A DNA stretch of 64,000 nucleotides from an uncultured Clostridia bacterium (lineage in GTDB: Bacteria > Bacillota > Clostridia > Christensenellales > UBA1242), in the NCBI GenBank assembly GCA_944383405.1, contig CALWPL010000001.1:196004-260003 (forward strand). The letters are read 5' to 3'. Both the position numbers and the translations under genes were made by a program. The notes under the pieces are model-generated. The model was not told the DNA's origin, made no database searches, and saw nothing but the letters and a program-made list of their open reading frames with translations. Each line of letters opens with the position of its first letter. The first letter of the stretch is position 1. Shown here piece by piece: positions 729-31,705 of the stretch.

Positions 729-3700
729 ATGAGAATAAGAAAGGTCAATTTGTTAATTATTCTTTGCATGGCAATCTTTGGTTGCTTTTTTGGCGTTTGT
801 TCAAATTGGCAATCAAGCAAGGGTGTAAAGGCTGAAATGGTAGTGAATTCGACCGAACAGTCGGTTTTGGCAGAAATGTCCACAAACCGTGTATATGTAA
901 GTAATGGAGCAACAAATACAAACAATGGTCTTTCTGCTTCAACTCCTGTTGGGACTTTGTCAAGGGCTCTTGAAATTGTAGCAGCAAATGACAGCATTAA
1001 TACAATTGAATTTTTAAATACTATTGTTGTAAGTGGAACTGGTACAAATGGAGTTATAGAAAATAATACTGGTAAAGATGTTTATTTTGTGCTTTCACAA
1101 AACTATGTTGGGAATACGACATATCATAGTGCTATGATTGGTGTTGGGGAAAGTTCGGGAAGCGTTGTGCTTCATGGAGATGATGAAAGTACAGATACTA
1201 CTGAAAGATTTATTTTTGATGGCGAAAAAGATAAGAATAAAACTATATCTATGCAAGTTATTGGAATAGATATAACGAAAAATGCGCTTGTATCACTTGA
1301 TATTGATAGTGTTGTTTTTCAAAATTTTAGTAACCAAAGAGATTCGCAAGGTTTTATTTATACATATGGTGGTGTTACTGCAAATAATATTGAAATATTA
1401 AATAATGAAACTTCGCTTTTTTGTAATTATGCAGCAAATGGTTTTACATTTACAAATTTAGATAATAACGCCAATAACGCTAAAACTGAAAATGTTAAGT
1501 TATCAAATATTAGAATAAGTGGTAATATTGGGGGTAAAGTTTTAGATTTAAGAAATATAAAGAGAGTTGACTTAGAAAAAGTTGTCGTTGAAGACAATGA
1601 TTTTTCTTTGCAAAGTTTGGGGCTAAATTTTGAAAGAATAGGAGATAGTGCTACGGGAAATGATGGGCTTTATATAAATGGATTTACAGCCAGTGGTAAT
1701 AGTATGTCTTATTCTTCAGCCGCTTCTTTGTTTAGGGCTGTATCAACTATGAAAACAGATGCGGTTGATGTTAAGTATTATGATAATGAGATTGAAAACA
1801 AGTCGTCATTATTCTATCTTATATCGCAGATTATAGAAGTAGAGAATTTTGATTTTGTAGATAACTTTGGCGCAGGCATGGCATTTAATTTCACTAAATA
1901 TGGGGAAATAAATAATAGTAATGTTGACGCAACGCTAAAAAATGTTAATTTTGAAAATAATATTGTTACTGGAAACATCGTGCAAATTAATTCGTTTAAC
2001 AATTTATCTATTGAAAACTTAAATGTTACAGGGACTAAAACTGGAGAATCAGTAGCGCCTAATGTAATTTATGCGGCAAATAATGGAATAATAAAAATTT
2101 CTTCGTCAACTTTTGAGAATTTAAATGTTACTACTTCTATTATTTATTTTGGGAACTCTGAAAAAAATTTCCATTCACAAATAACTATTGAAGGTTGTAA
2201 ACTTTTAAATTGTACTAATGGTAGAGGAATTTACATTGCAACTGGGGGTACAAACAACCCAGAAAACGAAAGATATTATGATATGACTATTACTAATTCA
2301 GAATTTGCATATTTTACGGATAAAGATGGAAGAAAAGTATTTGATATAAGGGCGATTAGAAATTTTAGCATGACTGGGAGCAAGGTGCATGACAATGCAG
2401 GTACTTTAGACTTGCTTTTTAATACAGATATTGAAGATGAAAAGACTGCTAGTTTTACAGATTGTGAGTTTTATAATAATAAAGGTAGAGTACTTATTTC
2501 AGGTTCGCAAACTCCACTGATTGACGCAAAAGAAAGCGTTATTATGACAAATGTTGAGATTTATAACAACTCGGTACAAGATGATGTTTTTTATGTTGTA
2601 TATGTAGAAGATGTTACTTTTGATGATTGTAAAATATATAATAATGAGTCTCTTGGTCGAATTATAGATGTGAATGTTGCTAATGATGTAAAGGTGATAA
2701 ATAGTGATTTTTATAGTAACAGAATAACTGTAGCGAATGGAAATTATAACTTTGGTGGGGCTTTATATGTTAGAAGATGTAATGCATATGTTGAAAATTG
2801 TGATTTTACTCAAAATAAGATGCTTGGCACAAGCATTACTGGGGCGGGTTTAGCGGCAGTTGACTGTTCACTAGATTTAATAGATTGTGATTTTAGAGGT
2901 AATAATAATGAAAATGGAAGTGGTGGTGGAGTTGGTGTTACTTATACCGCTGAACTTGTAGACTTATTAGAAAAATTAGACAAAGAAATTAATATTAAAG
3001 GGTGTATATTTAATGACAATTTTGCACAAAATGGTGGTGGATTATATCTTTACAAGGGTGGTTCTTTAGGTGAAGAGCAGGGTGTTATTAAACTAAACAT
3101 AGGTTCAAGCGAAAATAGAAGAACTGAGTTTATAGAGAACGCTAGCAGAAATGATGGTGGGGCAATGACTGCAACTGTAGCAGGCGGAGAGTCATATCAA
3201 GTAAATTTATGCATAGAGATTGAAGGAGTATTATTTAATAGCAATGTATCAACAAATGGTGGTGGGGGTAGCGCATATCTTAGAGTGCATGAAGGGAAAA
3301 GCATTACAGTTAATAATTGTCAATTTATTGGGAATAAAGCACAGACATATGCTGCGGATATAATTTTTTATACACATTCAAAAAATGAAATTAATATAAC
3401 AAATTCAAGTTTTGAAGGTGGAACTACTGGCCCTAATGGATTTGCTTCAGTTTATTTTAATAATAGTTCCCAAGAACGAGAGCAAGGAAGTGTTGTTGTT
3501 GATAATTGTACTTTTAGAAATATGAAATCTACAGCAGTAGATAATTCTACTTTTAGGCCAAGTGGAATTTATGGGGCAAGGTTAAGTAGCGCAAAAATTT
3601 CAAATTCTACTTTTGATGGCTTATCAGGGGTAAATTGTGCTGCAGTTTATTTGACTTATACAAATGTTGAAATAGAACAAGTAAATTTTGTTAACAATGA

Positions 3701-6700
3701 GGTAATAGCAGGAGTTGGTGGTGCGGCAGTAATTGCTATAGAAAACTCCAATTTAAAAATTAAAGATGTAGATTTTACCAATAATATTGGTAGTGGTAGG
3801 ATTTTTAGATATAGTTTAAGTTCAAGTTCTGCTAGTGGGGAATATCAATTAGAATATATAGGCGGAAATATAACTGGAAATAAAATTATTGAAACAAGAA
3901 ACAAAGATTGTCGGGAATTAATTTCAATTTATAAATCTTCAGTAGATGCTAACTTGGCTATAAAATTACAAGATTTAAATATTTCAGGGAATGAGATTGA
4001 AATAGCCTCAGACTCTGAAATTAGCGGTGGTGGAGTCCTAATGGTGCAAGATGCGGCTAATAATGGAAATAGTATTTTAGAAATGGACAATTGTGTGGTA
4101 AGCAGAAACATAGTTAAGCAAGATAAAGTTATTTATGGCTTATTTGCTCAAATAACAGGTGTTGGAGAAACTTATATAAAAGACAGCACAATTGAGCAAA
4201 ACGCTTGTGAAGGTGGCAGTGTTTATATAGTTCTTAGGCTTTACAATCCATATACAACTTATTCTTCTCAGGTTTATTTAAATAATGTAAGTTTTAGAGG
4301 AAATAATATAACTGACGGAGATGGTGGGGTTGTTCAACTTCTTGGAAAAGTAAGAATGAATATGGAAAATGGCAGTTTTGAAGGGACAAAGACAAGAAAT
4401 CGTCTTATAATAGCCAATGATGAAAATTCTAGTTATGTACTTGATGGGGTTAAATTTATAAATAATTCTATTGAAAATAGGACAGGCAATGATAATGCTG
4501 GGTTAATTTTAATTGACAAAATAGACAACACTATTAGAAATTGTATTTTTGAGAACAACACAGCAAATGGGTATAATAGTGCAGGCATTTATTTTGAAGG
4601 GAGTAATTATAGTTATACACTTGAAGGGTGTAAGTTTATAAACAATAGTAGCAAAGAAGGAAGCGCAATTTATGTAAACAATGGCACAAGTAGTTCAAAC
4701 ATTCAATTAACATTTGTTGATTGTGTTTTTAATGGGAACAAAGCAGCAGGAGATGGTGGTGCTGTTAGGACTTTTGACAGGACAGAATTTATAAATTGTA
4801 AATTTTATCAAAATCAGGCACAGGGCAATGGTGGAGCGATAAGGGCGATAAACTTGATTCTAAGCGGTTGTGCATTTGATGGAAATATTGCAAGTGGGAA
4901 TGGTGGAGCGATTTATTTAAGTGGAATGACAGCAATCTCAAATAATGGGGCGTTTTTACTTATAGATAGAGATAGCGAATACAAGACGAGTTTTAAAAAT
5001 AACATATCTAGTGGGAATGGTGGAGCAATATATATTTATGAGGAGTCAACAGTTGCGGTTTATGGGAGTGAATTTGCATTAAATAGTGCTGGTAATGGAG
5101 AAATGGGCGGCGCTATATATAATCTTGGGACTCTTATTATAAATGGCGGAATATTTAATGAAAATGGTGCAGAAAGTGTTCTTGGTGGTGCGATTGCAAA
5201 TGAGGGAGATTTAACCATTAGCGGAGTTGAGGCAAGTGGAAATATTTCTCTTAGCGGTGGATTTTTATACAATAATATTTCGACACAAATTGTTATTCAA
5301 GATAGTGTTTTAAGTGATAACAGTGCAGTAGGAAGCAGTAGCGATAATAGTGGGAATGGTGGTGCTATATCTATAATTCTTGGAGAATTGCAGATAGAAA
5401 ATGTTGAGATGACAGATAACACTGCAAGGGACTATGGTGGAGCGTTATATTTAGCGAGTGGAAGAAATAACAACTTATTACTTATTGACTGTAATATAGA
5501 TTTAAACACAAGTGCATATGGCGGTGGTGTTTCAATTGGTGGAAATGGTAGTAGTAATTCAACTCAAACTATATTTATTGAAAATGTTTCATTTGACCAA
5601 AATGTTTCAAATGGGGCACTTTATGTAAGTAGTGGCAATGCTCAAATAATGGACATGAGCATAACAAACACTACTGGTTATGGAATGTATGTTGCAAGTG
5701 GTTCGGTTGAAATTTCAAGGGAAATCATCATTAGCAATAACACTTATAATGATGGAAATTCCAATCTTTATCTTATAGGCGAAAGTGGAATAACGATTTC
5801 ATCTCCACTTATTGGGCAGTCAAGCATTGGGGTAAGTGTAGAAAATGCAAGTGAAAGAGCGATTATAGAGAGCAATGGAAATTATATAATAAAGAGCAGT
5901 GATTTTGAAAAATTTTCAAGTGATAGGCAAGGACAAGCAATATATTTTAGAGTTGTTGATGAATTAGACGGCACTCAAAATGCAATTTTTGTTAAAGATG
6001 TTAGTGCAAATAGTGGAATAGTTTATGTAGTATCTGATTTTTACGGCGAAAATGGCGATTTAGGTGTACTTGAGAGAGCAACGATTAGAGTAGAAGTATT
6101 TTATCCAAGTGATAGCAGCGTTAGTTATTCTCTTACAGGTGGAGATGATTATACGAGTAGTCCAATAGTTGCTACAAGTGCAGGAGTTACAACTATTTAT
6201 TATAGGATTGAGACAGGTTCAGGGAGTGCTACTCAAACTGTAAACGGAAGCGGAAAAGTTGTTATTACAGAAACAAATTCACTTTATGTTTATACGCTAC
6301 CAAATGTAGAGAATGTTTATATTAATACTCCACTTAGCAATGCAGAAATTAATGGCGGAATTGCTATGTATAATGGGGTTAGGATTGCAGGTAATTTTAG
6401 TTTTGTTAATGGAGATTATGAGCCAAGCACTGCTGGTAAGCAAATTTTTGAAATGGTATTTACGCCAAAGAACACAGAAGTTTATGCGCCAGTGCAGTTT
6501 GAAATGCTTGTAGATGTTATAGGATACAATGTACTTTATTTTAAAGAATTTGTCTCATCTGGAAGTATGACAAATAATTTCTATTTAACAGAAGAAGATG
6601 CTAACAACGCAGTAAATGCAGTTGCTAGTTTATCTGCGTCATCAAGGACAGGATTTAGCGATATAATTAACATAATGACCGATGGTGGTGTTATTTACAT

Positions 6701-21700: not shown

Positions 21701-24700
21701 TATTGCTTATTATTCATATAATGCTCAAAATCAACAATATACTCAATTAAGAGAAAGAGATACTATTGAATGTGGTGTGTATTATGTTGGTGTTACAATT
21801 ACACAGGCTGTGAATTCATTATTCTTTAACTATACGGGAACAGTTTATTTAAGATATGAGGTTGTCCCGCTTAGTATTACAAATAATGATGACATTATAG
21901 TTGAAATTCAAAATGATCCTACATTAAATCCAGATGGAACCTTCTATTTTATGGCAGAACCTATTTTACCTAAAATAAAGGTATATTGGAATGCTCCAGT
22001 TGTAAGTTTTGAAGAAAATGGAGATGTAATATTCGAAGGCAAATATCAAAAAACTCTTTTAGCAGAAGATGTGCAGTTTAATATTTCTCCTGTAACAAAT
22101 CAGAATGGGGACCCTATTCTTGGGGACGATGGTAGGTATATTAACTTCTATGCAGGCGATGGGACAATTACTATAAATGGAATGGATAATTTTACCGATT
22201 CGCATGTTACGCATTTTACAATTGAAAGAAGAACTCTAACTTCTATTCCACAAGGCGACCTTATTATCTTATTTGAAGATTATGTTTATACTGGAAGACA
22301 AATACTTCCAACTAAAGAAAATATTACATTAACTTATAATAATTATCCTGTTGAATATGATATAACTGGATATGGAAACAATGTTAATGTAAGTGATGGT
22401 GGAAGCGTAACAATTGTTGGCAATAGCAACTTTACAGGAGAAAGAACATTTACTTTCTCAATTGACCCATTAAATCTTGATGATAATAATCAACAATTAG
22501 TGATTGAACTTTTAAATGACACATTTATTTACACGGGGGAACAAATAAGGCCTAAAATCGCAGGTGTATATTATAATGGTATAAAATTGATTGAAGGAGA
22601 GGATTACAATACACCTACTTATGGCACAAATACAAATGTTAGCGAAGGTGGAACTATTTCAATACTCTTTACTATGAGTGGCGGAAATGGAAACTTTACA
22701 GGAAATGTAACAAAAAGTTTCTCAATTAGTAGAAGACCACTTGATGATACTAATTTTGTTATAACTGACTATGAACTTGATGAAAATGCGACTGCGGTTC
22801 AAGAATTAACTCCAGTAACATATACTGGGTCTGACATTACTAAAAATATTTATGTATATGTAATAAGAGTTGAAGGCGGAATTAAAAGATATGAAAAATT
22901 GACTAACAATTCTGATTATCAGACAACTATTACAAATAACAGAAATGTGGGAGACGGGATTGTAACTGTAGAAGGTTTAGGAAATTATACTTCTTCAATT
23001 TCTGTTCCATTTGAAATTTTACCGCTTAATATAAGTAGCGCTATAACAAATAGAAGTCTAACTATTGCAGAACTTAAACAAGAAGAAGGGAATTTAACAT
23101 ATCTCGTAGACCAATATTATAGTAGTTCAATTATTATTCCAAGTCTAACAATTAGTTATAGCGGTTCAAGATTATCTCAAGGAATAGACTATGTACTTGA
23201 AGCAGTTATTGATGGCGATAGTAGATATGGAGACAATATAAGTGTTGGAAAAAATAATAGAGTTAGGTTAACAGGGCGGGGTAATTTTACTGGCACATAT
23301 ATGTTGTATTATGATATTCTTCCAAAAGATTTAGATAATAATCCAACAATTTCTACTAATATCTCAGCGATACCAGATCAAGAGTATACAGGAGAAGAAA
23401 TAACGCCAAGTGCAAGTGTTATAGTTTATGATGGAGATTATATATTAATTCAAGGTCAAGATTATGAGATTTCATATATTAACAATATTAAAGTAGGTAG
23501 AGCAAGTATTAGAGTTAGTGGACTTGGGGATTATACTGGAAACATTGATGCAACATTTAATATTGTGGCAAGAGATATTTCAAATCATGTAAGTGAATTT
23601 AGATTTGAAACAAAAGGACTTATCTACACTGGTTCACAAATCACATTGGGTGGACATAATGTTAACAACTTTGATTTCTATTACAAAAATACACGACTTG
23701 AATATATAACAGATTTCTCTTTCTCTGATTCCTATCAAAACAATGTGAATGTTGGAGTAGCATCAGTTTTAATTACTGGAAGCGGTAATTTTACAGGTTC
23801 TGCAAGATTTGAATTTAATATTGAACCACAAGAGTTTGACTCAAATACATGGGAAATAATTCTTGATGAGATTTATAGATATACAGGAAATCCTGTTATG
23901 CCAATTCCACTTATATATGATGCTAATGATAATATGGTTGAAAGTGATAGTTATCAAATAAGTTATGCTAATAACCAATCACAATCACATAGAAATAACA
24001 ATGGGGCATGGACCCAAATTGGTGGGTCAACTGCACAGTTGCCAAGAGTTATTTTAACTTTCACAGGTAATTATTCGGGTTCTACACAAAAAACATTTGG
24101 TATAGGACAGATAGAAATAACCTTAGATGACTTAAATACCGATTATTTACTTCATAATGTTTACTATAGTGGCAGTGAAATACATTTAACACTTGATGAC
24201 TTAGAATTAAGATTGAAGAGCGATGAAGCAAAGTCAAATCCAAATGTTACCGAAGTTGATGAATACATTTTAACACAGGGAGATATTGAATCTATAACAA
24301 ACTATAATGTTTCGCCTTATGATAATAGAAATGCGGGGACTGGAGCAATTAGAGTAGTATTTGGTGGAGCAAGGAGTGTTTATACTGGCGAAGTTATACT
24401 TGAATACGAAATCGAGAGACTAGACTTAGGTAGTGATCTTGGTAGGCAATTATTAAATATTGCTGAAAGTGTTTTAACAAGTGAAATGTATACGGGTTCT
24501 GAAATTCGAAAAAATTTAACTAATAAGTTAAGTATTGGAGATACAACTCTTGTAGAAGGAATGCCATCTGATTTTGTTGCAAGTTTCTCATCAAATACAG
24601 AAGTTGGAATAGCAACAATAACTCTCACTGGTTATAACAATTTAACTGGTAGTAGGCAAATTACTTTTGAAATTATTCCAAGGCAATTTACAGACTCTGA

Positions 24701-27700
24701 TATGTTTGTAGTTTCTGACATTAGAAACATTACATATTTATATGGAACACCTATTTATGTTGATAATGAATTTACGGTTAGTTACCTTGTGAATGGAGAA
24801 AGTAAAATACTAAGATCTGGTGTAGATTATTTCATTAGTAGCTACGATAACAATATAAATGCAGGTGTAGCAACAGTTTATATTGAAGGTAGTGGTAATT
24901 TTAGTGGAACACTTTCAAAAGAATTTACTATTTCAAAACGAAGCATTGTTACTGCAAACATAGGATTAGCAAATGGAGATGTAGAATACTACACAGGAGA
25001 AGAAATTCTTATAGTAGATGGCGTTGATGAAAATGGTAGTTATTTTGAAGTTCTAGTTAGTGGAGAAGAGGGTGGTAAATCATATAGCGAAGTAATTAAA
25101 GTTTATAATGATGAAGTTATTGCAAAATATTATGAGGATCCTACTTACGGATATAAAAATAATTTAGTTGTTAGTGATACTGGGGCTAGAATAATATTTG
25201 CACTTAATGATAATTATGTCGGAGATAATTTAATATTAGTATTTGAAATTAGACCTCGAGTTTATAACGATACAGAATTTAAAGTTCCAAATATTTATAA
25301 TCAAACTTGGACTGGTTCTCAAATTAGACCAACATTTGACGGAGATGTTTATACTAGTGGACCAATAACATTTACAAATGAAAATGGCACAGAAATTGAA
25401 CTTAAATATGGTAAAGATTATACACTTGATTATGGAACCAATAAAAATTTTAATACAACAGGTACAGTTACTGTTACATTTATCGGAAACTATACAGGAG
25501 ATGTAATAAAGAGATTCCAGATTATGAAGGCGGTGCCAAGTGTTGAAGAATTTATGGAAGTATTTAAAAATGCATATGTTGTTCCGTATTCCGCTACAAG
25601 TATTGACATGCTTATTAGATACGGAGAAGTTGAAACGCTTGCTGACTTGAAAATAGTTGATGCTTTAAATAATGTAATCTCAAGTATTACATGGGCAAAC
25701 GAAGGTTTCCAAATTGGGACCGTAGGTACTTATGAAGTATATGTGAGGTACAATCCAGATAGAGAAATTTATGATGATCTAGTAACAACAATTGAGATTG
25801 TGGTACACAAGGGTTTATTTAGTGCAGAAGATATAAACATCTATGAAGGGCAAGAAAATAATTATTTCGCAAGTGAGTATCATGCTCATATTGTACTTAA
25901 TGACATTACACTTCCTGAGGGATATTCTTGGCAGTATCAAGAGGTTATTGCATCAGATATTGTAGTAGGAAACACATATTATGTTATTGAAAACGGAGAA
26001 TATGTTGAAAAGTATATTGGCAGTCAATCTGATTATGACCCTACTTTGACTTACTATGAGTCAGTAACAAATCTTGATAAAGACGAGCCAGAATACATAA
26101 TCGGTTCTGATAGGGATTATATAGAATTTACATTTATGGCAAAGTATAATTCAAATCCTATGCTTTATGAAGATTACATAGATATTCCTGTTACAATTAG
26201 AATTTACAAAGGCAATTTGAATGCGTCTACATTTAGGTATAGAGATATAACAAGAACTTATACTCCAACGCTTACTGCTTCTTCAATTTCAATTTCTAGG
26301 TCTTCTCCATGGAGTTGGATTGAAGATCAGGAGAATTTTAGAACTTTGCTTGAAGCAAGAGAAGACCCTTATGTTTTCTATATGTTATACAATCCAATGA
26401 ACGCAAGTGATACTGGTTCTCCAATAGATGGCGGTTTCCCAAAGAGCGTTTATGGTAAAAAAGAGAACTATAATACGGTTGTTGTTGAAGTTTATGTTTA
26501 TGTAACTCGAGCAACTTATACTCAAAGTCAAGTGCTTGCAGAATTATCATATTATATGCCTCCAACCTTCACTTATAAAGAGAACTTAACTACAGCAAAC
26601 ATAAACTTGAATTTACCAGAAGGGTTTAGTTTAAGAGATGTTTCTACAAGATTATATTACGGGAAAAATCAGATTTTCCTTGTATATAATAGAGATTCTT
26701 CTATTAATTCAAATTACAATTCTTATGGTGAAAGTTTGTCAGAAAGAGTGCAACTTACTATAAATGTTGTTTCTCCAACACTTCAAGGTTCTCTTAGTAC
26801 AGACAGGGATACTTATAGGGAAGTAGAGGCGACTCCATCAAATGGACTAGTTATTATAAGAGAGTATGGAGATACGGTTGCTAATAATAGACCTACAATA
26901 CCTTATATTGTTACATATTATGACCCATATTCAGATACTTGGGCAGAAGTTTCTGGAAGAGCAGAGTGGGTAGATGGGAGTGAAAGGCTTTTAACTGTTG
27001 GGTATATTTCACGACAACTTAGGTTCTATCCTGATGATAAAAATTATGTTTCAAATCAGGATTATACAACTTTTGATGTTGCTGTGAAAATAGACCAGGT
27101 CCCAGTAGATACAAGTCAAGTAACTTTCCCAAGCGACAAACAATATATAGTCTATGACAATTCTCCAACATTAAATCGTTTTGATAAGATTATTGTAAGT
27201 GAGTCGTCGCCATTTAATAATTTAGATGCTTTAAAAGATGTATATTATACTTATAAACAAGTGTTATTGAATCCAGATGGTTCAATTATTGAAGAAAGTT
27301 TGAATGGAGAAGAAAGAGAACTTAGAATTTCAACTATTCTTAATGCTGGTGGAGACGGAGAATTGTACGGATCTGCATATATTATTACTGCTCACTTTGA
27401 TAGGGGACAATGTGTGTATTATGATTTTGGTGATTATGAGCCAAGTATGATGTTGTACATTGCAAGGGCAGACCTAGAAATTTCGATTGAAGATGTTACA
27501 AAAACTTATGGAGATGTAAGCATTTCAAGTGGTATTGAGAATTTTACAATTTATGGGCTTGGTCAATTAAATCAAACAGATTATGTCTTTGGAATATATG
27601 ACCAAGATAATAATAGGGTAACTCTTAGATACAATTCAAATGTAGGCGAATATAGAATTATACTTACATTAAATGAAAGTCTGCGTACAAACTTTAATTA

Positions 27701-28247
27701 TGGGGAATCGCAAGTTGTTGCAACTTATACAATAACTCAAAAGGAAATTACACAATTTGAAATTAGAATTGATGGTGGTATCCTTAGAGAAAATGGAACA
27801 GTTCTTAATGATAAGATTAGCATTGAGTTCAACGCAGGGCAATTTGTTGATGGTAAAATACCTGAATATGAAGTTCATTTTACAAGAGATGGAACGAGTG
27901 TAAGCAGTGTAATTTCAGAAGGAACATACTATGTAACAATTGTTTTTGTTGATGGTAACTACAATGTAACTGCTACAAGATCGTTTATTGTATATGAAGC
28001 ACAAAGTTATTTGACATTAATTATTGTAGTTGGCGTCATAGTTGGTATAATTATTATCGTACTTATAGTTGTTTTAACTATTAGGATAAATAGAAGAAGA
28101 AATAGAAGAAATCTTCAAAAAGAACAACTAAAAGAGATTGAAAAGAAAATAAAATCTCAAAGCGATTCAAAGCATCAATTTAATCATTATTCAGATAATA
28201 CAAACAAAAATGGTGGAGATAAAACAGATAAACCGCTAGATAGTTAA
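729..28247 (+). CDS. Giant (9,172-aa) modular surface protein: signal peptide, four parallel-beta-helix cassettes, more than 40 Ig-like (MBG/YDG-type) repeats, C-terminal TM + polybasic anchor
   Basis: The frame is uninterrupted in AT-rich DNA; the largest competing ORF inside it is 110 aa. AAGGAG at 716-721 sits 7 nt before ATG 729, and the ORF-track start at 657 has no RBS. The N-terminus is hydrophobic (LLIILCMAIFGCFFGVC). The N-half has dozens of ~22-25-aa coils with [ILV]xNCxFxxN and GGA[ILV]Y motifs (PbH1 / Pmp-type beta-helix). The C-half consists of Ig-like repeats. The C-terminus is LTLIIVVGVIVGIIIIVLIVVLTI + RINRRRNRRN (about nt 28012-28113), ending in TAA at 28245-28247. Confidence 0.9.
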   Translation: MRIRKVNLLIILCMAIFGCFFGVCSNWQSSKGVKAEMVVNSTEQSVLAEMSTNRVYVSNGATNTNNGLSASTPVGTLSRALEIVAANDSINTIEFLNTIVVSGTGTNGVIENNTGKDVYFVLSQNYVGNTTYHSAMIGVGESSGSVVLHGDDESTDTTERFIFDGEKDKNKTISMQVIGIDITKNALVSLDIDSVVFQNFSNQRDSQGFIYTYGGVTANNIEILNNETSLFCNYAANGFTFTNLDNNANNAKTENVKLSNIRISGNIGGKVLDLRNIKRVDLEKVVVEDNDFSLQSLGLNFERIGDSATGNDGLYINGFTASGNSMSYSSAASLFRAVSTMKTDAVDVKYYDNEIENKSSLFYLISQIIEVENFDFVDNFGAGMAFNFTKYGEINNSNVDATLKNVNFENNIVTGNIVQINSFNNLSIENLNVTGTKTGESVAPNVIYAANNGIIKISSSTFENLNVTTSIIYFGNSEKNFHSQITIEGCKLLNCTNGRGIYIATGGTNNPENERYYDMTITNSEFAYFTDKDGRKVFDIRAIRNFSMTGSKVHDNAGTLDLLFNTDIEDEKTASFTDCEFYNNKGRVLISGSQTPLIDAKESVIMTNVEIYNNSVQDDVFYVVYVEDVTFDDCKIYNNESLGRIIDVNVANDVKVINSDFYSNRITVANGNYNFGGALYVRRCNAYVENCDFTQNKMLGTSITGAGLAAVDCSLDLIDCDFRGNNNENGSGGGVGVTYTAELVDLLEKLDKEINIKGCIFNDNFAQNGGGLYLYKGGSLGEEQGVIKLNIGSSENRRTEFIENASRNDGGAMTATVAGGESYQVNLCIEIEGVLFNSNVSTNGGGGSAYLRVHEGKSITVNNCQFIGNKAQTYAADIIFYTHSKNEINITNSSFEGGTTGPNGFASVYFNNSSQEREQGSVVVDNCTFRNMKSTAVDNSTFRPSGIYGARLSSAKISNSTFDGLSGVNCAAVYLTYTNVEIEQVNFVNNEVIAGVGGAAVIAIENSNLKIKDVDFTNNIGSGRIFRYSLSSSSASGEYQLEYIGGNITGNKIIETRNKDCRELISIYKSSVDANLAIKLQDLNISGNEIEIASDSEISGGGVLMVQDAANNGNSILEMDNCVVSRNIVKQDKVIYGLFAQITGVGETYIKDSTIEQNACEGGSVYIVLRLYNPYTTYSSQVYLNNVSFRGNNITDGDGGVVQLLGKVRMNMENGSFEGTKTRNRLIIANDENSSYVLDGVKFINNSIENRTGNDNAGLILIDKIDNTIRNCIFENNTANGYNSAGIYFEGSNYSYTLEGCKFINNSSKEGSAIYVNNGTSSSNIQLTFVDCVFNGNKAAGDGGAVRTFDRTEFINCKFYQNQAQGNGGAIRAINLILSGCAFDGNIASGNGGAIYLSGMTAISNNGAFLLIDRDSEYKTSFKNNISSGNGGAIYIYEESTVAVYGSEFALNSAGNGEMGGAIYNLGTLIINGGIFNENGAESVLGGAIANEGDLTISGVEASGNISLSGGFLYNNISTQIVIQDSVLSDNSAVGSSSDNSGNGGAISIILGELQIENVEMTDNTARDYGGALYLASGRNNNLLLIDCNIDLNTSAYGGGVSIGGNGSSNSTQTIFIENVSFDQNVSNGALYVSSGNAQIMDMSITNTTGYGMYVASGSVEISREIIISNNTYNDGNSNLYLIGESGITISSPLIGQSSIGVSVENASERAIIESNGNYIIKSSDFEKFSSDRQGQAIYFRVVDELDGTQNAIFVKDVSANSGIVYVVSDFYGENGDLGVLERATIRVEVFYPSDSSVSYSLTGGDDYTSSPIVATSAGVTTIYYRIETGSGSATQTVNGSGKVVITETNSLYVYTLPNVENVYINTPLSNAEINGGIAMYNGVRIAGNFSFVNGDYEPSTAGKQIFEMVFTPKNTEVYAPVQFEMLVDVIGYNVLYFKEFVSSGSMTNNFYLTEEDANNAVNAVASLSASSRTGFSDIINIMTDGGVIYMMSGLSSGADIYVNDSKTITLRRYSNFSAPMFSAYDNTTIIFGSSNMSGNLILDGNNIESDYPIIEYRRGMTGSATQIIYDGVSVVNHIGLNVPAIGVVGNVSLVIYNLNAENCHYIDESETSGESYNVPANLTTGGNIKYSGGGVLSTRNGESSSVGEVVPTINIYNMVANNCSSETYGGVISFSSDGSRNPSSLIVITNMEISNSSAEYGGGIATTIFNNLTIYNMTLSSNSATNGGGIYLTDMESIYQATIEGNSATYGGGMYLAGRGFSASVVGQNSENLIKIINNEATINGGGIFALNPFAMSYAMISGNTIRSTSDSSKLVYGAGISGAGIFVDELSSSSDALLINNSTISSNTIISSDTTYSVYGAGIYSKRVNLNQVEIFNNGIILSTSQELMNSMFLMGAGLCLYSIAGESVITNSNIHNNFIMSHNGKSFSGGAGIALIGSVNSVSGPQNVNLTNSEVMNNYISSVEYSSDTAENFDNSLYDQILIQFAYNTMGVSDNVYLNINGSVVSSSSTEPGIGSIGFNNLSFIDTIKSISSIFITGESYILAPIEVNMTNSYNATSPITILEGLSEESIINIYLSGTSVVLYSQGETSVPSTIIKYEEEYLTTIRNEVEAGLESDSGEEALQEDIDAGVIEILNGVFQDVFILTDGTGQNRRITLTPYTNSTIDQLVNRYTLVPTLYGSQPLAVVYWNPQATSSGNGNSEQTAVRTLDEALSRVQKGGEIRLVNTWIIEEDTVATASDAVISRYNASANIIVRNGATLELSNIIFDGNSDEFENSMIVVEKGGELILSDGVVIRNNTLSVQNIGTNESGSVIHNEGRVTINGGSYYSNSVLGYVDQGGFMYSSGEVYINGGIFHSNFARYGGAIYVDGGVVEISNGTFANNSAVTSNAINDIGLAGGAIYVTKDARLVISDGVFSGNNSVYGGAIYSKGEVEISGGRFINNIAVDALLPSTSQGSLNSVYVGGEGGAIFVSDGTINITGGAFYSNEATLGGAVVVGGNILPENVSNNNRISASITGNVLIIDNYARAFDVTTSVYATQSQISASATVAADMINDNHSYENGGGRGGAIFISAFSKLEIKNGNIGSNKAARSGGAIYADGGVLLISGGAIFDNMAGFYSTQSADVAVTQVSSMGGAIYYNGKIVEGYGSFGEANKGDILDNTDTGIKVNSLQESNFIISGGLIEGNFANNGAAIFITGTLNPTALIISGGKINANGSYDNANNVMVSNASASTLGGALYLSENAFVEIRDGAFITNNKANDGGAIYTNTGSRLLVSGGEITGNSVVDPLSNGNLEVNSSTSATAIAVTSGEVVLYGGIISDNYSTGVVAGAVVVAASTMDRFLFVGGSVYIYDNIINTEATLEYERNRARNIYIGQNGMNTALFEVFDEFTQDAKLGVYYQNMPMSTQKIQVAIVNQNVKTTSIRDNFVSDNENGTIYIDEDLNQTQISASGVIGRGLFVGAQYLTMNMSYTASDYIAEYDGDEHSIYIDVVPDYIIVQYAVRTERGLEYDDILEGEWTSTVPYISTGLWYVYFRFIGQNGLPILITDQLGDQVNYCDCRMINIEARQATVEELPTVSSVVLYNTEYSEDLGNMPTLTGGLVMDGDNIVYGSFRWAEEYMRFDTIGTVSATVIFEPDEQRSPIYSSMSLTIQVDVLTNTMYYDKTKTQSPFYLENDVTTNISTMQSALTYMNNNGTIYIYNGGYVLQGNETWTVEDRAVTIKKGNTFAGDLITLGNESFQSRLEISALSTKGRITIDGGAVWIDSNGNTSDPYRIDLRTGSSYQSPNGIQSTGSLINVLEGSNLVLEGNVVLTNNENNTGTDTASYGGAIISYGEVTIGPNVSITRNMATNGGGIAIMSGRLTMGLSDDGSSSGKVSLTANSTLLSGNGGAIYIASPNLEDGLSDQVSIIAATIQTNKAYSNGGAIYIGANVDFEISTSENQGVLISSNTTYGDGTIYSYSLVKVNSVNIENNTVTGEGSVMYLDNNASSSSDSLGIDGILVLQGTNSFTSTIIGQIVLDGNGFIADYGNLTIDSNVEILRKKENENSYTIADTVVAFASTSDVQGYIDIYSLYDGYRENNQDWSLAHITTHNDSSVIGESGVFIDPNASREYSASNSNWVTDLLQLATEFEITVYERENMEVAYNINVMYGDTYSEHIRGAELGGETGSVISTVNGKIENGKATLYYAGYSVSEFYLIQDNGYLAMGNFGYNDTTTQIYFDKDIFAAWTPAAPEVIVKVYKGVINEQGEVSVDEDGNYVLGEEVEQTVIDDRKEVSFTYGEPVILKLEITNRGETGFTYTYNWYENYLAGGGGTFVGGEDTILLTEASNNSYSAYVTSQVTGISGTMSNQARIEEATVVVNISQAKLSIGIVNSEFTYEGEDIYVTTQDGNLTYGENGLPNIDNFYIEDRTPLKYTDEIGDLGLEVVNSETSIGIAKNVGTYTFNFSLSNTNYVIETGTLNWEIVPLELEIDYWIDIGLDGVTGTNYYNEYTSAFESIVDTSHILIPHFSNVKNEDRVNVELSYYVNGSSSVDKTMFLAFTNARHESASPYIIPRLDYIGNTEYADYTGYTSSSTIRTIIANIYNEYDNYILSDDITNNEIEWSITGTQAFVNLWAVETGMTISSYINSDEMEVRDNMYILERAYTPGGYNITFNLKDSSGGTIPTGARVNLSVNGVEEDGTGIQNTITFDIDRFNGSNLQFATDSAYLNYLNIVNAGVYQITVSIDEESSNYFESPTAIYTMEFTIHKATLSLEWGVMRQADQAPMETEEVSVQAELPDGTFTLLNGLAVTYNNIFYVPYVTGCAENIALTVEYSEDNQSYYSFAESLNRLYKRNAGTYVFFARLADPNLEKNYIIEENGIFAFVIERIALSVSWPASEFEWTSNEITCEPVITGVLPGDASGSGLWTITGNKATDIGSGYVCEILPSETMLSGENCNYTFDNPENQPSLTHSWSIVQRTLGVTWFAYTYSDSEYTPLYEQVFPNGTISAKIFTYNNIGYVLIPQLTNIVDRLADFSDVQATFVDTVTSQYNQDATWTDAGRYRREVTGLTGTSMGYYRLPASTDVQMSIVWEVGAKPIQVSWSTPTTFEFDGEIHGITASVVPSSLAEGDDENSIVFTYSLEGVNVREAVEVGTYYATIIDTGNPNYTVEDGSVREWTITKRELQLNWSWFSDEGGDELTDENNRRAKTYSGTPLYLTINENSSASIIGRVESRPNVHVSIAYTNSLNASITGDRAINVGVYRAVATLTGDDSDCYTIRSGDEQIEWSIVQRTLEFDWLAYSDYNQVELQTTNATRVLINVVNRAQYFMFSPTNVVAGDSLSFTVIRTGGGLTSDSVDSRLTVNLQDASSLSDFVSRLSTWAINAGSYEIEISGISGDAMSNYRLPDDKLDRSQIWRLNPVELNVDRAIRISYNGSQTPFTYNGQNQTVTIRVYDAWSNLDESLENAFLIQDTDFVLEGITQRNVAATDNYTWVATVTLINPNFTFTDGEYNSETNQVEGATILSQSYWDVEWIINPLIAELSWSSSEEGFSYDGITKIVIAEVSNVIEGDTVRVTRYSTDAIDPNSEYYDYVTANEDGNKYYVYSATNVGVYCARAIQLSNRNYTLINCSTAENLWKINQKTLTVTWGSQGTISIVDGVSTAVYAKSAIYYIPQVSGIIAGDESGVEVSITYKYRESSDVPWDSAQNIEASNCITVGEYRCEISITNGGDKYVLSSDDMYRTWTIVPRTLSFNWRELSATYTGQALSPQVTMVGQMSGDQVSVGEYRYTNASGETLTSVSAVGSYTVEVLSLTGNDSKNYTIEGSSNRTATFNIVPIRVSFEFTPSTNDWTYNGQPKYYEPTGLKGILSGEQVSFNLTYTYRNVAGVLSSTPPSGPNYCVNAGTYTVTVSLTGNNAGNYSLEDYSVEALTRTWTIQQRVVTFTWGNVGDTVVGGVYRYQYTGESIRIEAAVVNNGGPQEDNVTVGEYALNEFVSCGNYVARVVSLDAANSNNYTFDTAAASTQQAWAIVAKELAIQDISWQYNGGLTSTTLEHEYSGEEISIIPSILSSSLVEVDRDRVYLQYSITRNDVGVSECIDVGTYTVTITGIGGESAGNYSINNLQEQETGLSMSWQITQREIYYTYDKSTAGSSISGNSLVATYSGSAIRFGVLLQNTIASDNVYPLYSYTAGGEQQSNLVICSLTQAGNYTANLTLGGSDASNYVLAQDYTQALFRVLQVELTLSGDWTPTSFSYTGENQYPTITINGVQPGDMPYEYAYRVETASGSFTDMTANTVPSRAGSYQIELRLTQDGQINYAWASDVTIDMRTFEFQINPIDVNYEVIPLQMGSSDTEASVEDRTTTVLVVLYGANGQGASRPTGNIWFYNGENGTQLYTGKLLTSYTVGTYPNYENIISARLVGNYAYAIFSYTEANSSRYLPALSFTSDSNDLQGTLYTNYNSFTNQAIVDDIEDSQFIPSGQTQNPLYMYYLDPTSVEGSPSYIIANGQLIESSYVYGDTMILFIVGGSRIGSTSNPNDGFRLSMGNLGVISAGQQITQIGNGVAPCEVTYVTGSSDSQLSAFIEYYKNNNSLTDDNFPGAIKVTIRFLRPTGTSAGNEISISGYKDGGTYGGSNYSSTYSNSLNIYVGKKTINANIPDATQTYNTNNVTFVSDIVNGQVVYYTLDKEEVVNVFEGQTEIQEGDFDELLSQISPTFRVSGEDWSTYRVGEYEGVITSVFDSIYYNVVVDINANNRFGTLRVSGRHLTEDDVVITVNDDSLVYDGSAKQPSLTVRLIEDDGSLSPIDSSDYGISYFNNVNAGSSAYARITFTGSQQGVQTDYRYSGIIDAYFTIQKLDISGSNLPTNRQIVIDSAITSDEIYTGSTITKNFFDTQNRSRIYITENGVSNPIAYITQDTDFIVSYSNNINRTDNATITLTGRGTNVTGTRTITFKILPMTITTEMIGDNYGLSSGKEVMYSGLNNTPSVDYLRLQDGSVSFVYDRETIAYYSYNAQNQQYTQLRERDTIECGVYYVGVTITQAVNSLFFNYTGTVYLRYEVVPLSITNNDDIIVEIQNDPTLNPDGTFYFMAEPILPKIKVYWNAPVVSFEENGDVIFEGKYQKTLLAEDVQFNISPVTNQNGDPILGDDGRYINFYAGDGTITINGMDNFTDSHVTHFTIERRTLTSIPQGDLIILFEDYVYTGRQILPTKENITLTYNNYPVEYDITGYGNNVNVSDGGSVTIVGNSNFTGERTFTFSIDPLNLDDNNQQLVIELLNDTFIYTGEQIRPKIAGVYYNGIKLIEGEDYNTPTYGTNTNVSEGGTISILFTMSGGNGNFTGNVTKSFSISRRPLDDTNFVITDYELDENATAVQELTPVTYTGSDITKNIYVYVIRVEGGIKRYEKLTNNSDYQTTITNNRNVGDGIVTVEGLGNYTSSISVPFEILPLNISSAITNRSLTIAELKQEEGNLTYLVDQYYSSSIIIPSLTISYSGSRLSQGIDYVLEAVIDGDSRYGDNISVGKNNRVRLTGRGNFTGTYMLYYDILPKDLDNNPTISTNISAIPDQEYTGEEITPSASVIVYDGDYILIQGQDYEISYINNIKVGRASIRVSGLGDYTGNIDATFNIVARDISNHVSEFRFETKGLIYTGSQITLGGHNVNNFDFYYKNTRLEYITDFSFSDSYQNNVNVGVASVLITGSGNFTGSARFEFNIEPQEFDSNTWEIILDEIYRYTGNPVMPIPLIYDANDNMVESDSYQISYANNQSQSHRNNNGAWTQIGGSTAQLPRVILTFTGNYSGSTQKTFGIGQIEITLDDLNTDYLLHNVYYSGSEIHLTLDDLELRLKSDEAKSNPNVTEVDEYILTQGDIESITNYNVSPYDNRNAGTGAIRVVFGGARSVYTGEVILEYEIERLDLGSDLGRQLLNIAESVLTSEMYTGSEIRKNLTNKLSIGDTTLVEGMPSDFVASFSSNTEVGIATITLTGYNNLTGSRQITFEIIPRQFTDSDMFVVSDIRNITYLYGTPIYVDNEFTVSYLVNGESKILRSGVDYFISSYDNNINAGVATVYIEGSGNFSGTLSKEFTISKRSIVTANIGLANGDVEYYTGEEILIVDGVDENGSYFEVLVSGEEGGKSYSEVIKVYNDEVIAKYYEDPTYGYKNNLVVSDTGARIIFALNDNYVGDNLILVFEIRPRVYNDTEFKVPNIYNQTWTGSQIRPTFDGDVYTSGPITFTNENGTEIELKYGKDYTLDYGTNKNFNTTGTVTVTFIGNYTGDVIKRFQIMKAVPSVEEFMEVFKNAYVVPYSATSIDMLIRYGEVETLADLKIVDALNNVISSITWANEGFQIGTVGTYEVYVRYNPDREIYDDLVTTIEIVVHKGLFSAEDINIYEGQENNYFASEYHAHIVLNDITLPEGYSWQYQEVIASDIVVGNTYYVIENGEYVEKYIGSQSDYDPTLTYYESVTNLDKDEPEYIIGSDRDYIEFTFMAKYNSNPMLYEDYIDIPVTIRIYKGNLNASTFRYRDITRTYTPTLTASSISISRSSPWSWIEDQENFRTLLEAREDPYVFYMLYNPMNASDTGSPIDGGFPKSVYGKKENYNTVVVEVYVYVTRATYTQSQVLAELSYYMPPTFTYKENLTTANINLNLPEGFSLRDVSTRLYYGKNQIFLVYNRDSSINSNYNSYGESLSERVQLTINVVSPTLQGSLSTDRDTYREVEATPSNGLVIIREYGDTVANNRPTIPYIVTYYDPYSDTWAEVSGRAEWVDGSERLLTVGYISRQLRFYPDDKNYVSNQDYTTFDVAVKIDQVPVDTSQVTFPSDKQYIVYDNSPTLNRFDKIIVSESSPFNNLDALKDVYYTYKQVLLNPDGSIIEESLNGEERELRISTILNAGGDGELYGSAYIITAHFDRGQCVYYDFGDYEPSMMLYIARADLEISIEDVTKTYGDVSISSGIENFTIYGLGQLNQTDYVFGIYDQDNNRVTLRYNSNVGEYRIILTLNESLRTNFNYGESQVVATYTITQKEITQFEIRIDGGILRENGTVLNDKISIEFNAGQFVDGKIPEYEVHFTRDGTSVSSVISEGTYYVTIVFVDGNYNVTATRSFIVYEAQSYLTLIIVVGVIVGIIIIVLIVVLTIRINRRRNRRNLQKEQLKEIEKKIKSQSDSKHQFNHYSDNTNKNGGDKTDKPLDS
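885..12900 (+). repeat. Protein-level repeat region: four parallel-beta-helix cassettes (about 885-6000, 6520-8780, 8780-11100, 11710-12900) separated by Ig-like spacer pairs (about 6000-6520, 11100-11705)
   Basis: Coil motifs recur, e.g. ENCDFTQN, IDCDFRGN, KGCIFNDN, NNCQFIGN, INCKFYQNQAQGNGGAIRA, SGCAFDGNIASGNGGAIYL, YGGAIYVDGG, RSGGAIYADGG, GNGGAIYIASP. Each cassette opens with a cap-like segment (NRVYVSNGATNTNNGLSASTPVGTLSRALEIV / AVVYWNPQATSSGNGNSEQTAVRTLDEALSRV / NTMYYDKTKTQSPFYLENDVTTNISTMQSALTYM). Boundaries are approximate, read by eye. Confidence 0.7.
13830..19720 (+). repeat. Tandem Ig-like repeat array A (about 18 units of ~85-100 aa)
   Basis: The unit ends recur, e.g. LNWEIVPLELEI, HSWSIVQRTLGVTW, REWTITKRELQLNW, IEWSIVQRTLEFDW, NLWKINQKTLTVTW, RTWTIVPRTLSFNW, RTWTIQQRVVTFTW, MSWQITQREIYYTY. 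Each is preceded by [FY]xY[DNT]G..., [NV]AG[TS]Y and NY motifs (MBG/YDG-type). Boundaries are approximate. Confidence 0.7.
20950..25540 (+). repeat. Tandem Ig-like repeat array B (about 16 units of ~90 aa), a different subfamily from array A
   Basis: The recurring unit is ...YTG/YDG-x-x-[IQ]-x-P ... DY-x-[IV]-x-Y-x-NN-x-N-x-G-x-A ... G-x-GN[FY][TS]G ... F-x-I-x-P. Examples: GNSNFTGERTFTFSIDP, GRGNFTGTYMLYYDILP, GSGNFTGSARFEFNIEP, GLGDYTGNIDATFNIVA, GSGNFSGTLSKEFTISK, FIGNYTGDVIKRFQIMK. Boundaries are approximate. Confidence 0.7.
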
Positions 28248-28251
28248 TAGG

Positions 28252-28293
28252 TATAACTACTGTACTATTTAAGAGTGCAGTAGTTATATTTTT
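28252..28293 (+). terminator. Rho-independent terminator of the giant ORF
   Basis: TATAACTACTG (28252-28262) pairs with CAGTAGTTATA (28278-28288), followed by TTTTT (28289-28293). It begins 5 nt after the stop. Confidence 0.8.
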
Positions 28294-28480
28294 AATTTTT
28301 AGCAAAATTTAGGATTATTCCTATGTAAAATTACTATTTTTGCAGAAACTAAGTTGTGTAGAAATAATGGATTTAGCAAAAAGTCATTTTATAAGCATAA
28401 ATCATTATGTAATAATTTAATCATATTTAAAGTATTTATTAGTTTTTATATGTGAAAAATGCCAAAAAAAATTATGAATA

Positions 28481-28509: not shown

Positions 28510-28540
28510 ATGGACAATAGAAATAGGGGGTATGCAAAGA

Positions 28541-31696: not shown

Positions 31697-31705
31697 TTAA
31701 AAAAA

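Follow-up and report, generated by a model that had tools for sequence, protein, structure and literature searches.

The polymorphic membrane proteins (Pmps) of Chlamydia have a role as adhesins. In Firmicutes, the dominant layout of fibrillar adhesins is an N-terminal adhesive part, followed by a stalk and then by a C-terminal anchor (PMC8286594). In methanogens, the commonest layout of the adhesin-like proteins (ALPs) is β-helix repeats followed by β-sandwich repeats and a transmembrane (TM) helix (PMC11532034). Ebh, a protein of 1.1 MDa with a C-terminal membrane anchor, has been described as being "of unknown function" and as blocking clumping by steric hindrance (PMC4856396), and a passage in PMC5031765 cites work according to which it affects cell size. 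There are two main classes of giant bacterial genes: those encoding surface proteins and those encoding nonribosomal peptide synthetases and polyketide synthases (PMC11573180). UniProtKB holds about 41,754 proteins of at least 5,000 amino acids across all life, most of them eukaryotic (PMC11573180), and proteins of more than 30,000 amino acids have been curated from metagenomes (10.1101/2023.11.21.568195). Here, we describe a gene of 27.5 kb and its product (the giant protein), encoded in a stretch of 64,000 nucleotides of DNA from an uncultured Clostridia bacterium (contig CALWPL010000001.1; the whole stretch is called the window, and nucleotide positions are those of the window).

The giant gene is real, intact and under purifying selection. 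Its product is probably a fibrillar surface protein of 1.0 MDa with β-helix heads on a β-sandwich stalk and a C-terminal membrane anchor, presumably with an adhesive role; most of the uncertainty in this reading lies in the function, and less of it in the architecture. Tandemly repeated stalk units are present (16 + 16 units of about 95 residues, plus flanking units), as are a secretion signal and a cell-surface anchor, which together are features of fibrillar adhesins as Monzon and Bateman define them operationally, and four β-helix modules of the PMP (polymorphic membrane protein) type, with a putative adhesive role, are situated at the N-terminal end, i.e., the end distal to the anchor. The regions of the protein are as follows (HMM, hidden Markov model; PMP profile, see below):

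729-833, + strand, residues 1-35: predicted N-terminal signal sequence (MRIRK, an 18-residue hydrophobic core, then VKA followed by E)
891-6038, + strand, residues ~55-1770: β-helix module 1 (Beta_helix, Chlam_PMP and TIGR01376 matches; PMP profile continuous over residues 564-1769; N-cap alignment)
6039-6578, + strand, residues ~1771-1950: linker 1 (β-rich; Pfam scan without a family match)
6579-8576, + strand, residues ~1951-2616: β-helix module 2 (weak PMP profile match over residues 1996-2616, E 1e-5; GG[AG][ILVMF] motifs; N-cap)
8769-11078, + strand, residues 2681-3450: β-helix module 3 (homologues, AlphaFold2 model, Foldseek)
11079-11753, + strand, residues ~3451-3675: linker 3 (no family match)
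11754-12986, + strand, residues ~3676-4086: β-helix module 4 (PMP profile over residues 3629-4086, E 1.5e-15 for residues 3788-4086; N-cap)
13860-19703, + strand, residues 4378-6325: array 1, ~16 YDG/MBG-like β-sandwich units (iterated HMM, aligned units)
19704-20999, + strand, residues 6326-6757: inter-array region (β-rich, no family match)
21000-25553, + strand, residues 6758-8275: array 2, 16 units of ~75-145 residues (iterated HMM, alignment)
25554-28010, + strand, residues 8276-9094: membrane-proximal region, ~8 β-rich units (the best conserved part in relatives)
28011-28082, + strand, residues 9095-9118: predicted single TM helix, LTLIIVVGVIVGIIIIVLIVVLTI (Kyte-Doolittle maximum 3.8; helical in the model; conserved in all relatives)
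28083-28244, + strand, residues 9119-9172: predicted cytoplasmic tail of 54 residues (RINRRRNRRN stop-transfer sequence, conserved LQKEQLKE, variable end)

The gene is a single open reading frame (ORF) at 729-28247 on the + strand (27,519 nt, i.e., 9,172 sense codons and a TAA), which is the length that had been counted when the gene was first noticed from the sequence (the original prediction). The product of 9,172 amino acids has a mass of 1,002 kDa and a pI of 4.3, and the public gene call gives the identical length. There is no in-frame TGA or TAG within 729-28247, and because TGA is absent the reading of 9,172 codons is independent of the genetic code. An alternative code was considered and can be ruled out on the same ground, the 62 TGG codons encoding Trp. 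In the remaining five frames over the same positions, the longest start-to-stop ORF has exactly 110 codons, the upper limit given in the original prediction, and the longest stop-to-stop stretch has 156. At 33% G+C the random frequency of stops is about 0.075 per codon, so the chance of an open run of 9,172 codons is about 1e-309. The G+C content at codon positions 1, 2 and 3 is 43, 39 and 18%, and that at position 3 lies between 15 and 21% in each of eighteen bins of 500 codons. Given this uniformity, the same coding signature extends over the entire ORF.

The window is part of a metagenome scaffold in ENA (235,583 bp). Because the scaffold was assembled from short reads, and giant repetitive genes are easily misassembled, the ORF could be thought an artefact or a pseudogene, i.e., a chimeric or repeat-collapsed assembly, or a decaying gene that is still open. 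There is next to no likelihood of this, and it is effectively refuted already. Three samples give products of 9,172, 9,187 and 9,194 amino acids in the same context. The longest comes from a contig of 72,977 bp assembled from another sample (Logan SRR25052237), in which the giant gene has 88% nucleotide identity to that in the window (about 12% divergence), contains no stop, and occupies the same position, followed by genes for a GLUG protein, SpoVG, MurC and L31, as in the window. The other is on ENA ERZ16268139 scaffold_804 (47,258 bp), with 96% amino acid identity and the same neighbours. In addition, positions 25331-33649 of the window are matched at 100% identity by Logan contigs from other runs. 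Tandem DNA repeats are absent from the ORF, and its dispersed DNA repeats do not exceed 47 nt in length or 87% identity; the internal repeats of the protein are 22-50% identical in local BLASTP alignments. Repeat collapse is thus of no concern, and the uniform codon bias likewise speaks against an artefact.

Selection was estimated as the ratio of nonsynonymous to synonymous substitution rates (dN/dS). In the comparison with the 88% relative, the last 3,209 aligned codons have a dN/dS of 0.093, similar to the 0.088 of the neighbouring MurC gene. In bins of 400 codons across these 3,209 codons the ratio is 0.05-0.13, and it is 0.05-0.08 in the region of residues 8276-9094. A ratio of 0.09, together with about 12% nucleotide divergence and not one stop in the 9,194-residue orthologue, speaks against a decaying gene.

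A more distant relative is found on CASDOR010000009.1 (a metagenome-assembled genome labelled "uncultured Christensenella sp."), in which an ORF is open for at least 4,194 codons from the edge of the fetched locus and is collinear with residues 5000-9160 of the giant protein at 44% identity; genes for GLUG and MurC proteins follow it once more. This relative, the nearest that bears a name, has been placed in the Christensenellales, a label that is loose at 44-55% protein identity. The host of the giant gene is thus best described as a low-GC (31%) member of the Bacillota, an uncultured member of the Clostridia near the Christensenellales, with that label to be read loosely, and is probably a gut bacterium.

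The N-terminal half of the protein had been described as four β-helix cassettes, and searches of the translated product with HMMs bear this out. All 24 GGA[ILV] motifs are within residues 500-4000. Three families score above their cut-offs: in residues 919-1836, Pfam Beta_helix (PF13229) has 50.2 bits (cut-off 25.9) and Chlam_PMP (PF02415) has 42.2 bits (cut-off 20.6), and TIGR01376 exceeds its threshold of 15 bits in two tiles, with 34 and 24.5 bits. Weak matches to Chlam_PMP and TIGR01376 in the tile of residues 2755-3672 were entered under module 4. An HMM of a single coil detected 11 coils only and was replaced by a home-made profile (the PMP profile) built from the alignment of the homologues of module 3. 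The PMP profile matches four separate stretches (residues 564-1769, 1996-2616, 2681-3450 and 3629-4086) and nothing past residue 4086; for modules 2 and 4, it is the only profile that matches. At the start of each stretch there is a related cap segment, VY...G.S...T..TL..AL..V..GG.I. Residues 36-560 match no model (Pfam and NCBIfam tiles, homology searches and PDB), and within them residues 55-560 are called β-helix from their sequence pattern alone. The segment between modules 2 and 3 (residues ~2617-2680) has no family match, and searches of PDB sequences with residues 1-918, 919-2690 and 3440-4995 gave no match.

Module 3, which was the β-helix module modelled with AlphaFold2, has 314 homologues, nearly all of which are annotated PF13229 or PF02415. 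Those with names include a "right-handed parallel beta-helix repeat-containing protein" (Methanobrevibacter and others), an "adhesin-like protein" (Methanobacterium) and a "predicted outer membrane repeat protein". The consensus of their alignment is a ladder of FxxNxAxxxGGAI. The model (predicted local distance difference test, pLDDT, 71; predicted template-modelling score, pTM, 0.77) has a short cap helix followed by regular coils of three strands. The 50 matches in PDB listed by Foldseek are mainly right-handed β-helices, the top ones included, and comprise PL6 lyases, Ag43, pertactin, PfbA and phage tailspikes. Together, these results show that module 3 has a β-helix fold and that modules 1-4 all contain PMP repeats.

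The same structural matches raise the question of whether the giant protein could be an array of polysaccharide-active enzymes tethered to the surface, in which at least one β-helix module is a lyase or glycosidase that acts on host, dietary or microbial glycans away from the cell. Right-handed β-helices are a common scaffold for carbohydrate-active proteins, and the top Foldseek matches of module 3 are PL6 alginate or chondroitin lyases, other lyases and phage tailspike depolymerases. However, the relatives at the level of sequence are PMP-repeat proteins and not families of carbohydrate-active enzymes, no lyase or glycosidase family of Pfam or NCBIfam was found in any tile, and the template-modelling scores (TM-scores) to lyases are 0.13-0.22, a similarity at the level of the fold only. 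We therefore consider an enzyme array very unlikely, and retain the reading of the β-helix modules as the heads of a fibrillar protein.

The heads are followed by the stalk. The original prediction had counted about 34 Ig (immunoglobulin)-like units in two arrays; the iterated HMM confirms β-rich repeats of about 95 residues and counts 16 units of the type of array 1 and 16 of the type of array 2, with cross-matches between the two types. The consensus of array 1 is Y.G...P...G.Y.V..L.G..NY......W.I....L. Its units were scored against the YDG and MBG families (PF18657, PF17883 and PF18676). Pfam YDG (PF18657) matches four of 13 units, the best with 22 bits (E 1.9e-4), which is below the cut-off of 25 bits, and MBG and MBG_2 match two units each, just below the gathering score. 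In PDB, the profile of array 1 matches 4ng0 (a repeat of the adhesin LAR_0958 of Lactobacillus reuteri) from end to end (E 7.9e-4). The consensus of array 2 is YTG..I.P...L..G.DY..SY.NN.NVG.A.V.ITG.GNYTG.....F.I.P. Array 2 gave no significant match among Pfam families and PDB sequences (the PDB search returned nanobody matches at chance level only), and its HMM did not match the MBG or YDG regions of other proteins of the window. In hhalign, array 2 aligns with array 1 with a probability of 76% (E 2.4e-5). As this is its only tie to a known fold, we infer the Ig-like fold of array 2 by way of array 1.

The membrane-proximal region is 35-55% identical to the corresponding regions of relatives (P0001-P0004 and L004, the last being CASDOR010000009.1). 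An AlphaFold2 model of residues 8084-9172, based on four homologues, has a pLDDT of 45 and is nearly all β-strand. Foldseek places it with chains of tandem β-sandwiches (Sap S-layer protein, cadherins, pilins and SiiE), a weak hint that the last ~800 extracellular residues may form a β-sandwich chain. The original prediction had called both array 2 and these last ~800 residues Ig-like or MBG units; with no Pfam matches, and a model of pLDDT 45, that assignment was made with more confidence than the data allow. Pfam scans of ten linker or otherwise unmatched segments yielded nothing usable. The stalk as a whole would thus comprise about 45-50 β-sandwich domains, a reading that is well supported for array 1 and that is extended to the remainder by inference.

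There are only two hydrophobic segments in the 9,172 residues: residues 3-27 and residues 9086-9123. The first is the hydrophobic N-terminus recognised in the original prediction. The N-terminus reads MRIRK-VNLLIILCMAIFGCFFGV-CSNWQSSKGVKA, followed by E, with the n, h and c regions arranged as in a Sec signal peptide. The orthologous N-terminal fragments P0005 and P0007 start with MRVRKFNFVIFLC (MRVRKFNF...), which is followed by the hydrophobic core, and they have ANA followed by DE, or AQA followed by EE, at the position of VKA followed by E in the giant protein; neither has a lipobox Cys. Because the n-h-c layout and the AxA-like site are conserved in the orthologues, the signal peptide is predicted to be cleaved, at a site near residue 35. 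A lipoprotein signal, with a PROSITE-like lipobox readable at Cys19, was considered and rejected, since the orthologues do not have Cys there.

The second hydrophobic segment contains the TM helix, after which come RINRRRNRRN and a further 44 residues, so the single helix, the Arg-rich stop-transfer sequence and the roughly 50 cytoplasmic residues that had been described were all recovered (the tail is RINRRRNRRNLQKEQLKEIEKKIK). As the positive charges follow the TM helix, the part of about 9,000 residues is predicted to be outside the cell and the tail of 54 residues inside, the topology of a type I single-pass membrane protein. The original prediction called the protein tail-anchored, a term that in its strict sense requires that there be no signal sequence; because a conserved N-terminal signal sequence of the Sec type is present, the protein is not strictly tail-anchored, and type I is the fitting class. 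In a comparison that took in the relatives L004, L009 and P0001-P0003, a juxtamembrane motif, NR[RK]..[RK]..[IL]Q[KQ]EQ[LY][KN] (28083-28160, residues 9119-9144), is kept in six relatives, the most distant of them at 37% identity. Beyond the motif, the tail varies freely among relatives, one of which has a stretch of 130 residues rich in Pro, Asn and Gly. In the AlphaFold model the TM helix continues through the juxtamembrane motif, which is conserved beyond the need of a stop-transfer signal. No LP.T[GAN] (LPxTG-type) motif is present in the 9,172 residues, nor in any other surface protein encoded in the window, and no Pfam tile matches the autotransporter barrel (PF03797), the C-terminus being one α-helical TM segment and a tail. 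A contact-dependent toxin was considered and rejected, as there is no toxin domain at the C-terminus, which is the anchor.

The hydrophobic core of the N-terminal segment is long (18-23 residues, both in the giant protein and in its orthologues), and the AxA-like site is about 11 residues further on. With such a long core and distant site, the segment could stay in the membrane as a second anchor. The signal would then be an uncleaved signal-anchor, both ends of the protein would be in the membrane, and its roughly 1 MDa would form a hairpin or arch, for which there is precedent in that some methanogen ALPs have anchors at both termini (PMC11532034). Against this, A/V-x-A followed by an acidic residue occurs at the same position in three orthologues, as expected for signal peptidase I, and long Gram-positive signal peptides typically have this n-h-c organisation. 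A doubly anchored loop therefore seems most improbable, and the single C-terminal anchor is the topology that we adopt.

The signals around the gene are as follows:

611-639, + strand: candidate sigma-70-like promoter, TTGGCG-17-TATAAT (10 of 12 matches)
716-721, + strand: Shine-Dalgarno sequence AAGGAG, 7 nt upstream of the ATG at 729 (read directly from the sequence)
28249-28301, + strand: intrinsic-terminator-like feature, an 18-pair hairpin (28249-28291) with a T-run

The start at 729, with its good Shine-Dalgarno sequence, agrees with the original prediction, with the public gene call and with the orthologues, the N-terminal fragments of which align with the giant protein from residue 1. 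An upstream ATG at 657, taken from a mechanical list of ORFs, was rejected as the start: no Shine-Dalgarno sequence precedes it, and both the public gene call and the orthologues begin at 729. The promoter that had been proposed at 611-639 exists as a site, and promoter-like sites in the AT-rich spacer upstream of the gene are in no excess over shuffled sequence, so it stands as a candidate only. The strong terminator is upheld as a terminator-like hairpin (one found, 0.0 expected in shuffles). The upstream gene ends at its own terminator (349-367), and a perfect TTGACA-17-TATAAT at 28481-28509 belongs to the downstream gene. With flanking signals of its own, a separate terminator upstream and a separate promoter downstream, the giant gene looks monocistronic, as had been proposed. 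Just 5′ of the candidate -35 element, at 548-596, there is an A-rich imperfect tandem repeat of 22 nt with runs of A7-A8, which could alter promoter strength or differ in length among strains.

Relatives of the giant protein are few. The C-terminal region has only four in 5.8 billion clustered proteins. The N-terminus (residues 1-1200) has 18 HMMER matches in 1.84 billion representatives, comprising three short orthologous fragments and generic PMP repeats. Relatives of the giant locus amount to one locus among 185,579 species genomes. A word-indexed search with residues 1-918 gave no match, and a scan of Joint Genome Institute (JGI) metagenomes with the N-terminus gave one weak β-helix match (27%). 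These searches under-report long proteins: the giant protein itself was not returned, and the word-indexed search listed none longer than about 1,350 amino acids. The absence of full-length homologues from protein-library searches is thus uninformative, as the libraries did not return the giant protein itself. By searches with this bias, the distribution appears to be narrow.

How such a protein might work can be set out step by step. The N-terminal Sec signal sequence would start co-translational export, and the C-terminal hydrophobic helix with its Arg/Lys-rich flank would stop transfer, leaving a type I protein with its 54-residue tail in the cytoplasm. The tandem β-sandwich domains (two arrays of about 16 units, and flanking units; about 45-50 domains) would act as the stalk, which at about 4 nm per domain would measure about 200 nm. 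The stalk would pass through the wall and hold the four PMP-type right-handed β-helix modules at its far end, where about 140 coils of about 25 residues each, at about 0.5 nm per coil, would give heads of about 60 nm in all. There, the β-helix modules would serve as surfaces for binding, with glycans or other cells as the most likely targets. This scheme, with its lengths and the adhesive function, is extrapolated from the anatomy and from what is known of the domain classes involved.

Several observations weigh against this picture. About half of the protein is without a family match (residues 36-560, the linkers, residues 4087-4377 and 6326-6757, array 2, and residues 8276-9094). The sole model of the C-terminal region is of low confidence (pLDDT 45), and for module 3 the Foldseek TM-scores are low (0.1-0.36) and the E-values marginal. 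As polysaccharide lyases are among the best structural neighbours of the module 3 model, an enzymatic role for a head is conceivable. Finally, the long N-terminal hydrophobic core, with its putative cleavage site about 11 residues beyond, could act as a second anchor.

The protein might also organise or shield the envelope, in the manner of Ebh of S. aureus: it would be a structural spacer that sets properties of the envelope or cell size, or that masks surface molecules, with no specific ligand. It shares topology and size class with Ebh (C-terminal membrane anchor, steric block of clumping; PMC4856396), the conserved cytoplasmic juxtamembrane motif hints at an intracellular partner, and strong purifying selection acts along the whole stalk and not on the heads only. 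Yet no repeats of the Ebh type were found, and four distal heads are hard to explain for a pure spacer. To our knowledge, moreover, the PMP-type β-helices of chlamydial Pmps have been ligand-binding or adhesive wherever they have been studied. The same applies to those of ALPs (PMC11532034). A shielding role is consequently unlikely in our judgement, and adhesion by the distal heads remains the preferred function.

A more specific form of adhesion can be imagined, although we give it little chance of being correct. The giant protein would be a lineage-specific, multi-headed tether between cells, with up to four binding specificities on a fibre of about 250 nm, holding an H2-producing bacterium of the Christensenellales type to partners, e.g., methanogens, and with the LQKEQLK motif linking it, for positioning or outside-in signalling, to a partner inside the cell. 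The circumstantial points are that the window contains a gene for an [FeFe]-hydrogenase, that relatives with as little as 37% identity retain the tail motif, and that the named β-helix homologues are enriched in adhesin-like proteins of the Methanobacteriales. Christensenella species form flocs that are colonised by Methanobrevibacter (PMC7002349).

The giant gene has several neighbours that encode surface proteins. Directly upstream (window 1-342, + strand) is the 3′ end of a gene for another PMP-like β-helix surface protein (GGGVYVDNGGQLIIGG...), which ends with a TM helix and KRQRKR and is followed by the terminator at 349-367; the giant protein thus belongs to a cluster of surface proteins with similar anchors. 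A protein of 783 amino acids, encoded at 35073-37424 (+ strand), starts with a signal peptide, contains a YDG domain (25.6 bits) and ends with a TM helix and a tail of KKKKK. Because other surface proteins of the window also have a signal peptide, a C-terminal TM helix and a basic tail, anchoring by TM helix seems to be a habit of the host organism. A third large surface protein in the 64 kb, of 2,132 amino acids (44588-50986, + strand), has a lipobox-like N-terminus (LLLSIICLWGC) and a match to Pfam MBG_2 (41 bits). Immediately 3′ of the giant gene, in all four lineages examined (the window, L009, L010 and L004), is a gene for a GLUG-motif protein, which in the window (28541-31696, + strand) encodes 1,051 amino acids with an N-terminal TM segment, has the perfect TTGACA-17-TATAAT at 28481-28509 already mentioned, and has its recorded start at 28541, not at the first ATG (28532).

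Elsewhere in the window, positions 37558-39561 (+ strand) encode a fusion of 667 amino acids between a monogalactosyldiacylglycerol (MGDG)-synthase/glycosyltransferase and an acyltransferase, the counterpart of which is called as two genes (511 + 143 amino acids) at 19128-21118 of the locus of the 88%-identical relative (L009) and one gene (663 amino acids) in another (L013). A protein of 579 amino acids (62202-63941, + strand) has dozens of Pfam matches of the coiled-coil type (DUF948, EzrA-like, laminin and others) and a C-terminus that looks β-rich; it is probably a long coiled-coil. The window also encodes SpoVG, a MurC-type ligase, MetRS and the [FeFe]-hydrogenase. All 2-kb bins but one have a positive GC skew, and the + strand carries most of the long genes, which is consistent with a position of the window on a leading strand.

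At 1.0 MDa the giant protein is among the larger bacterial proteins, and a gene of 27.5 kb is a large investment for any bacterial genome. Its length has been stably kept (9,172-9,194 amino acids) across strains that differ by 12% of their nucleotides. The uncultured lineage of Clostridia seems to anchor its large surface proteins via C-terminal TM helices and not by sortase, and in gut communities the giant protein is a candidate for a factor that determines attachment or aggregation. As about half of its sequence matches no family of Pfam, NCBIfam or PDB, it is also a source of undescribed stalk and linker domains. None of this overturns existing views: of the two classical classes of giant bacterial genes, one encodes surface proteins with β-helix heads and stalks of Ig-like domains.

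The comparison with known systems can now be made. Like chlamydial Pmps (PF02415, TIGR01376), the giant protein has GGA[ILV] and FxxN repeats that form a parallel β-helix. However, Pmps are type V autotransporters with a C-terminal β-barrel in the outer membrane, whereas the giant protein has an α-helical TM anchor and belongs to a lineage with SpoVG and a Mur ligase; having no barrel, it is not a Pmp autotransporter. The ALPs of Methanobrevibacter smithii and Methanosphaera stadtmanae (PMC11532034) share with it β-helix domains on the N-terminal side, which are often repeated, tandem β-sandwich repeats, and one TM helix with a basic flank. The homologues of module 3 in Methanobrevibacter and Methanobacterium are of the ALP type and have 25-29% identity, i.e., homology at the level of the repeats only. 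ALPs differ in being archaeal, mostly of one to three thousand amino acids, and with the TM helix usually N-terminal and sometimes C-terminal or at both ends; the giant protein is bacterial, three to nine times longer, and has four modules with linkers and a C-terminal anchor.

Among proteins of Firmicutes, the giant staphylococcal proteins Ebh/Embp (PMC4856396, PMC5031765) resemble the giant protein in their size of about 1 MDa, N-terminal secretion signal, lack of LPxTG, C-terminal TM anchor and long repetitive rod. Ebh has α-helical repeats of the FIVAR/GA type, no β-helix heads and no sequence homology to the giant protein; since FIVAR, GA and DUF1542-type families are absent from the Pfam tiles, the giant protein is not a homologue of Ebh. 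The sortase-anchored fibrillar adhesins (Monzon et al., PMC8286594, PMC9210967) have in common with it an N-terminal binding region, a stalk of tandem repeats and a C-terminal anchor, and in LAR_0958 (Lactobacillus reuteri, PDB 4ng0) the likeness extends to the full-length match with the profile of array 1. In the giant protein a TM helix takes the place of LPxTG and sortase, four very large β-helices take the place of one compact adhesive domain, and the length is 5-10 times greater. Since it lacks an LPxTG motif, the giant protein is not a sortase substrate; sortase-anchored proteins have a short basic tail, and that of the giant protein is 54 residues long. Giant1-4 of Apilactobacillus kunkeei (PMC12863079; 3,000-8,000 amino acids) are likewise proteins of Firmicutes with a Sec signal peptide, an N-terminal β-solenoid and a very long stalk of imperfect repeats. 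They differ in that they have no TM domain, attachment being thought to occur via C-terminal SH3b-like domains, and one solenoid compared with four, and no homology to them was found.

The order of head, stalk and anchor, which the original prediction did not recognise from any characterised adhesin, is therefore the standard layout, with precedents in fibrillar adhesins, Ebh and ALPs (PMC8286594, PMC4856396, PMC11532034). What is particular to the giant protein is its size, its four successive β-helix modules with linkers, its conserved cytoplasmic motif and its narrow distribution. Thus, the giant protein is an unusually large example of a kind of protein that is already known.

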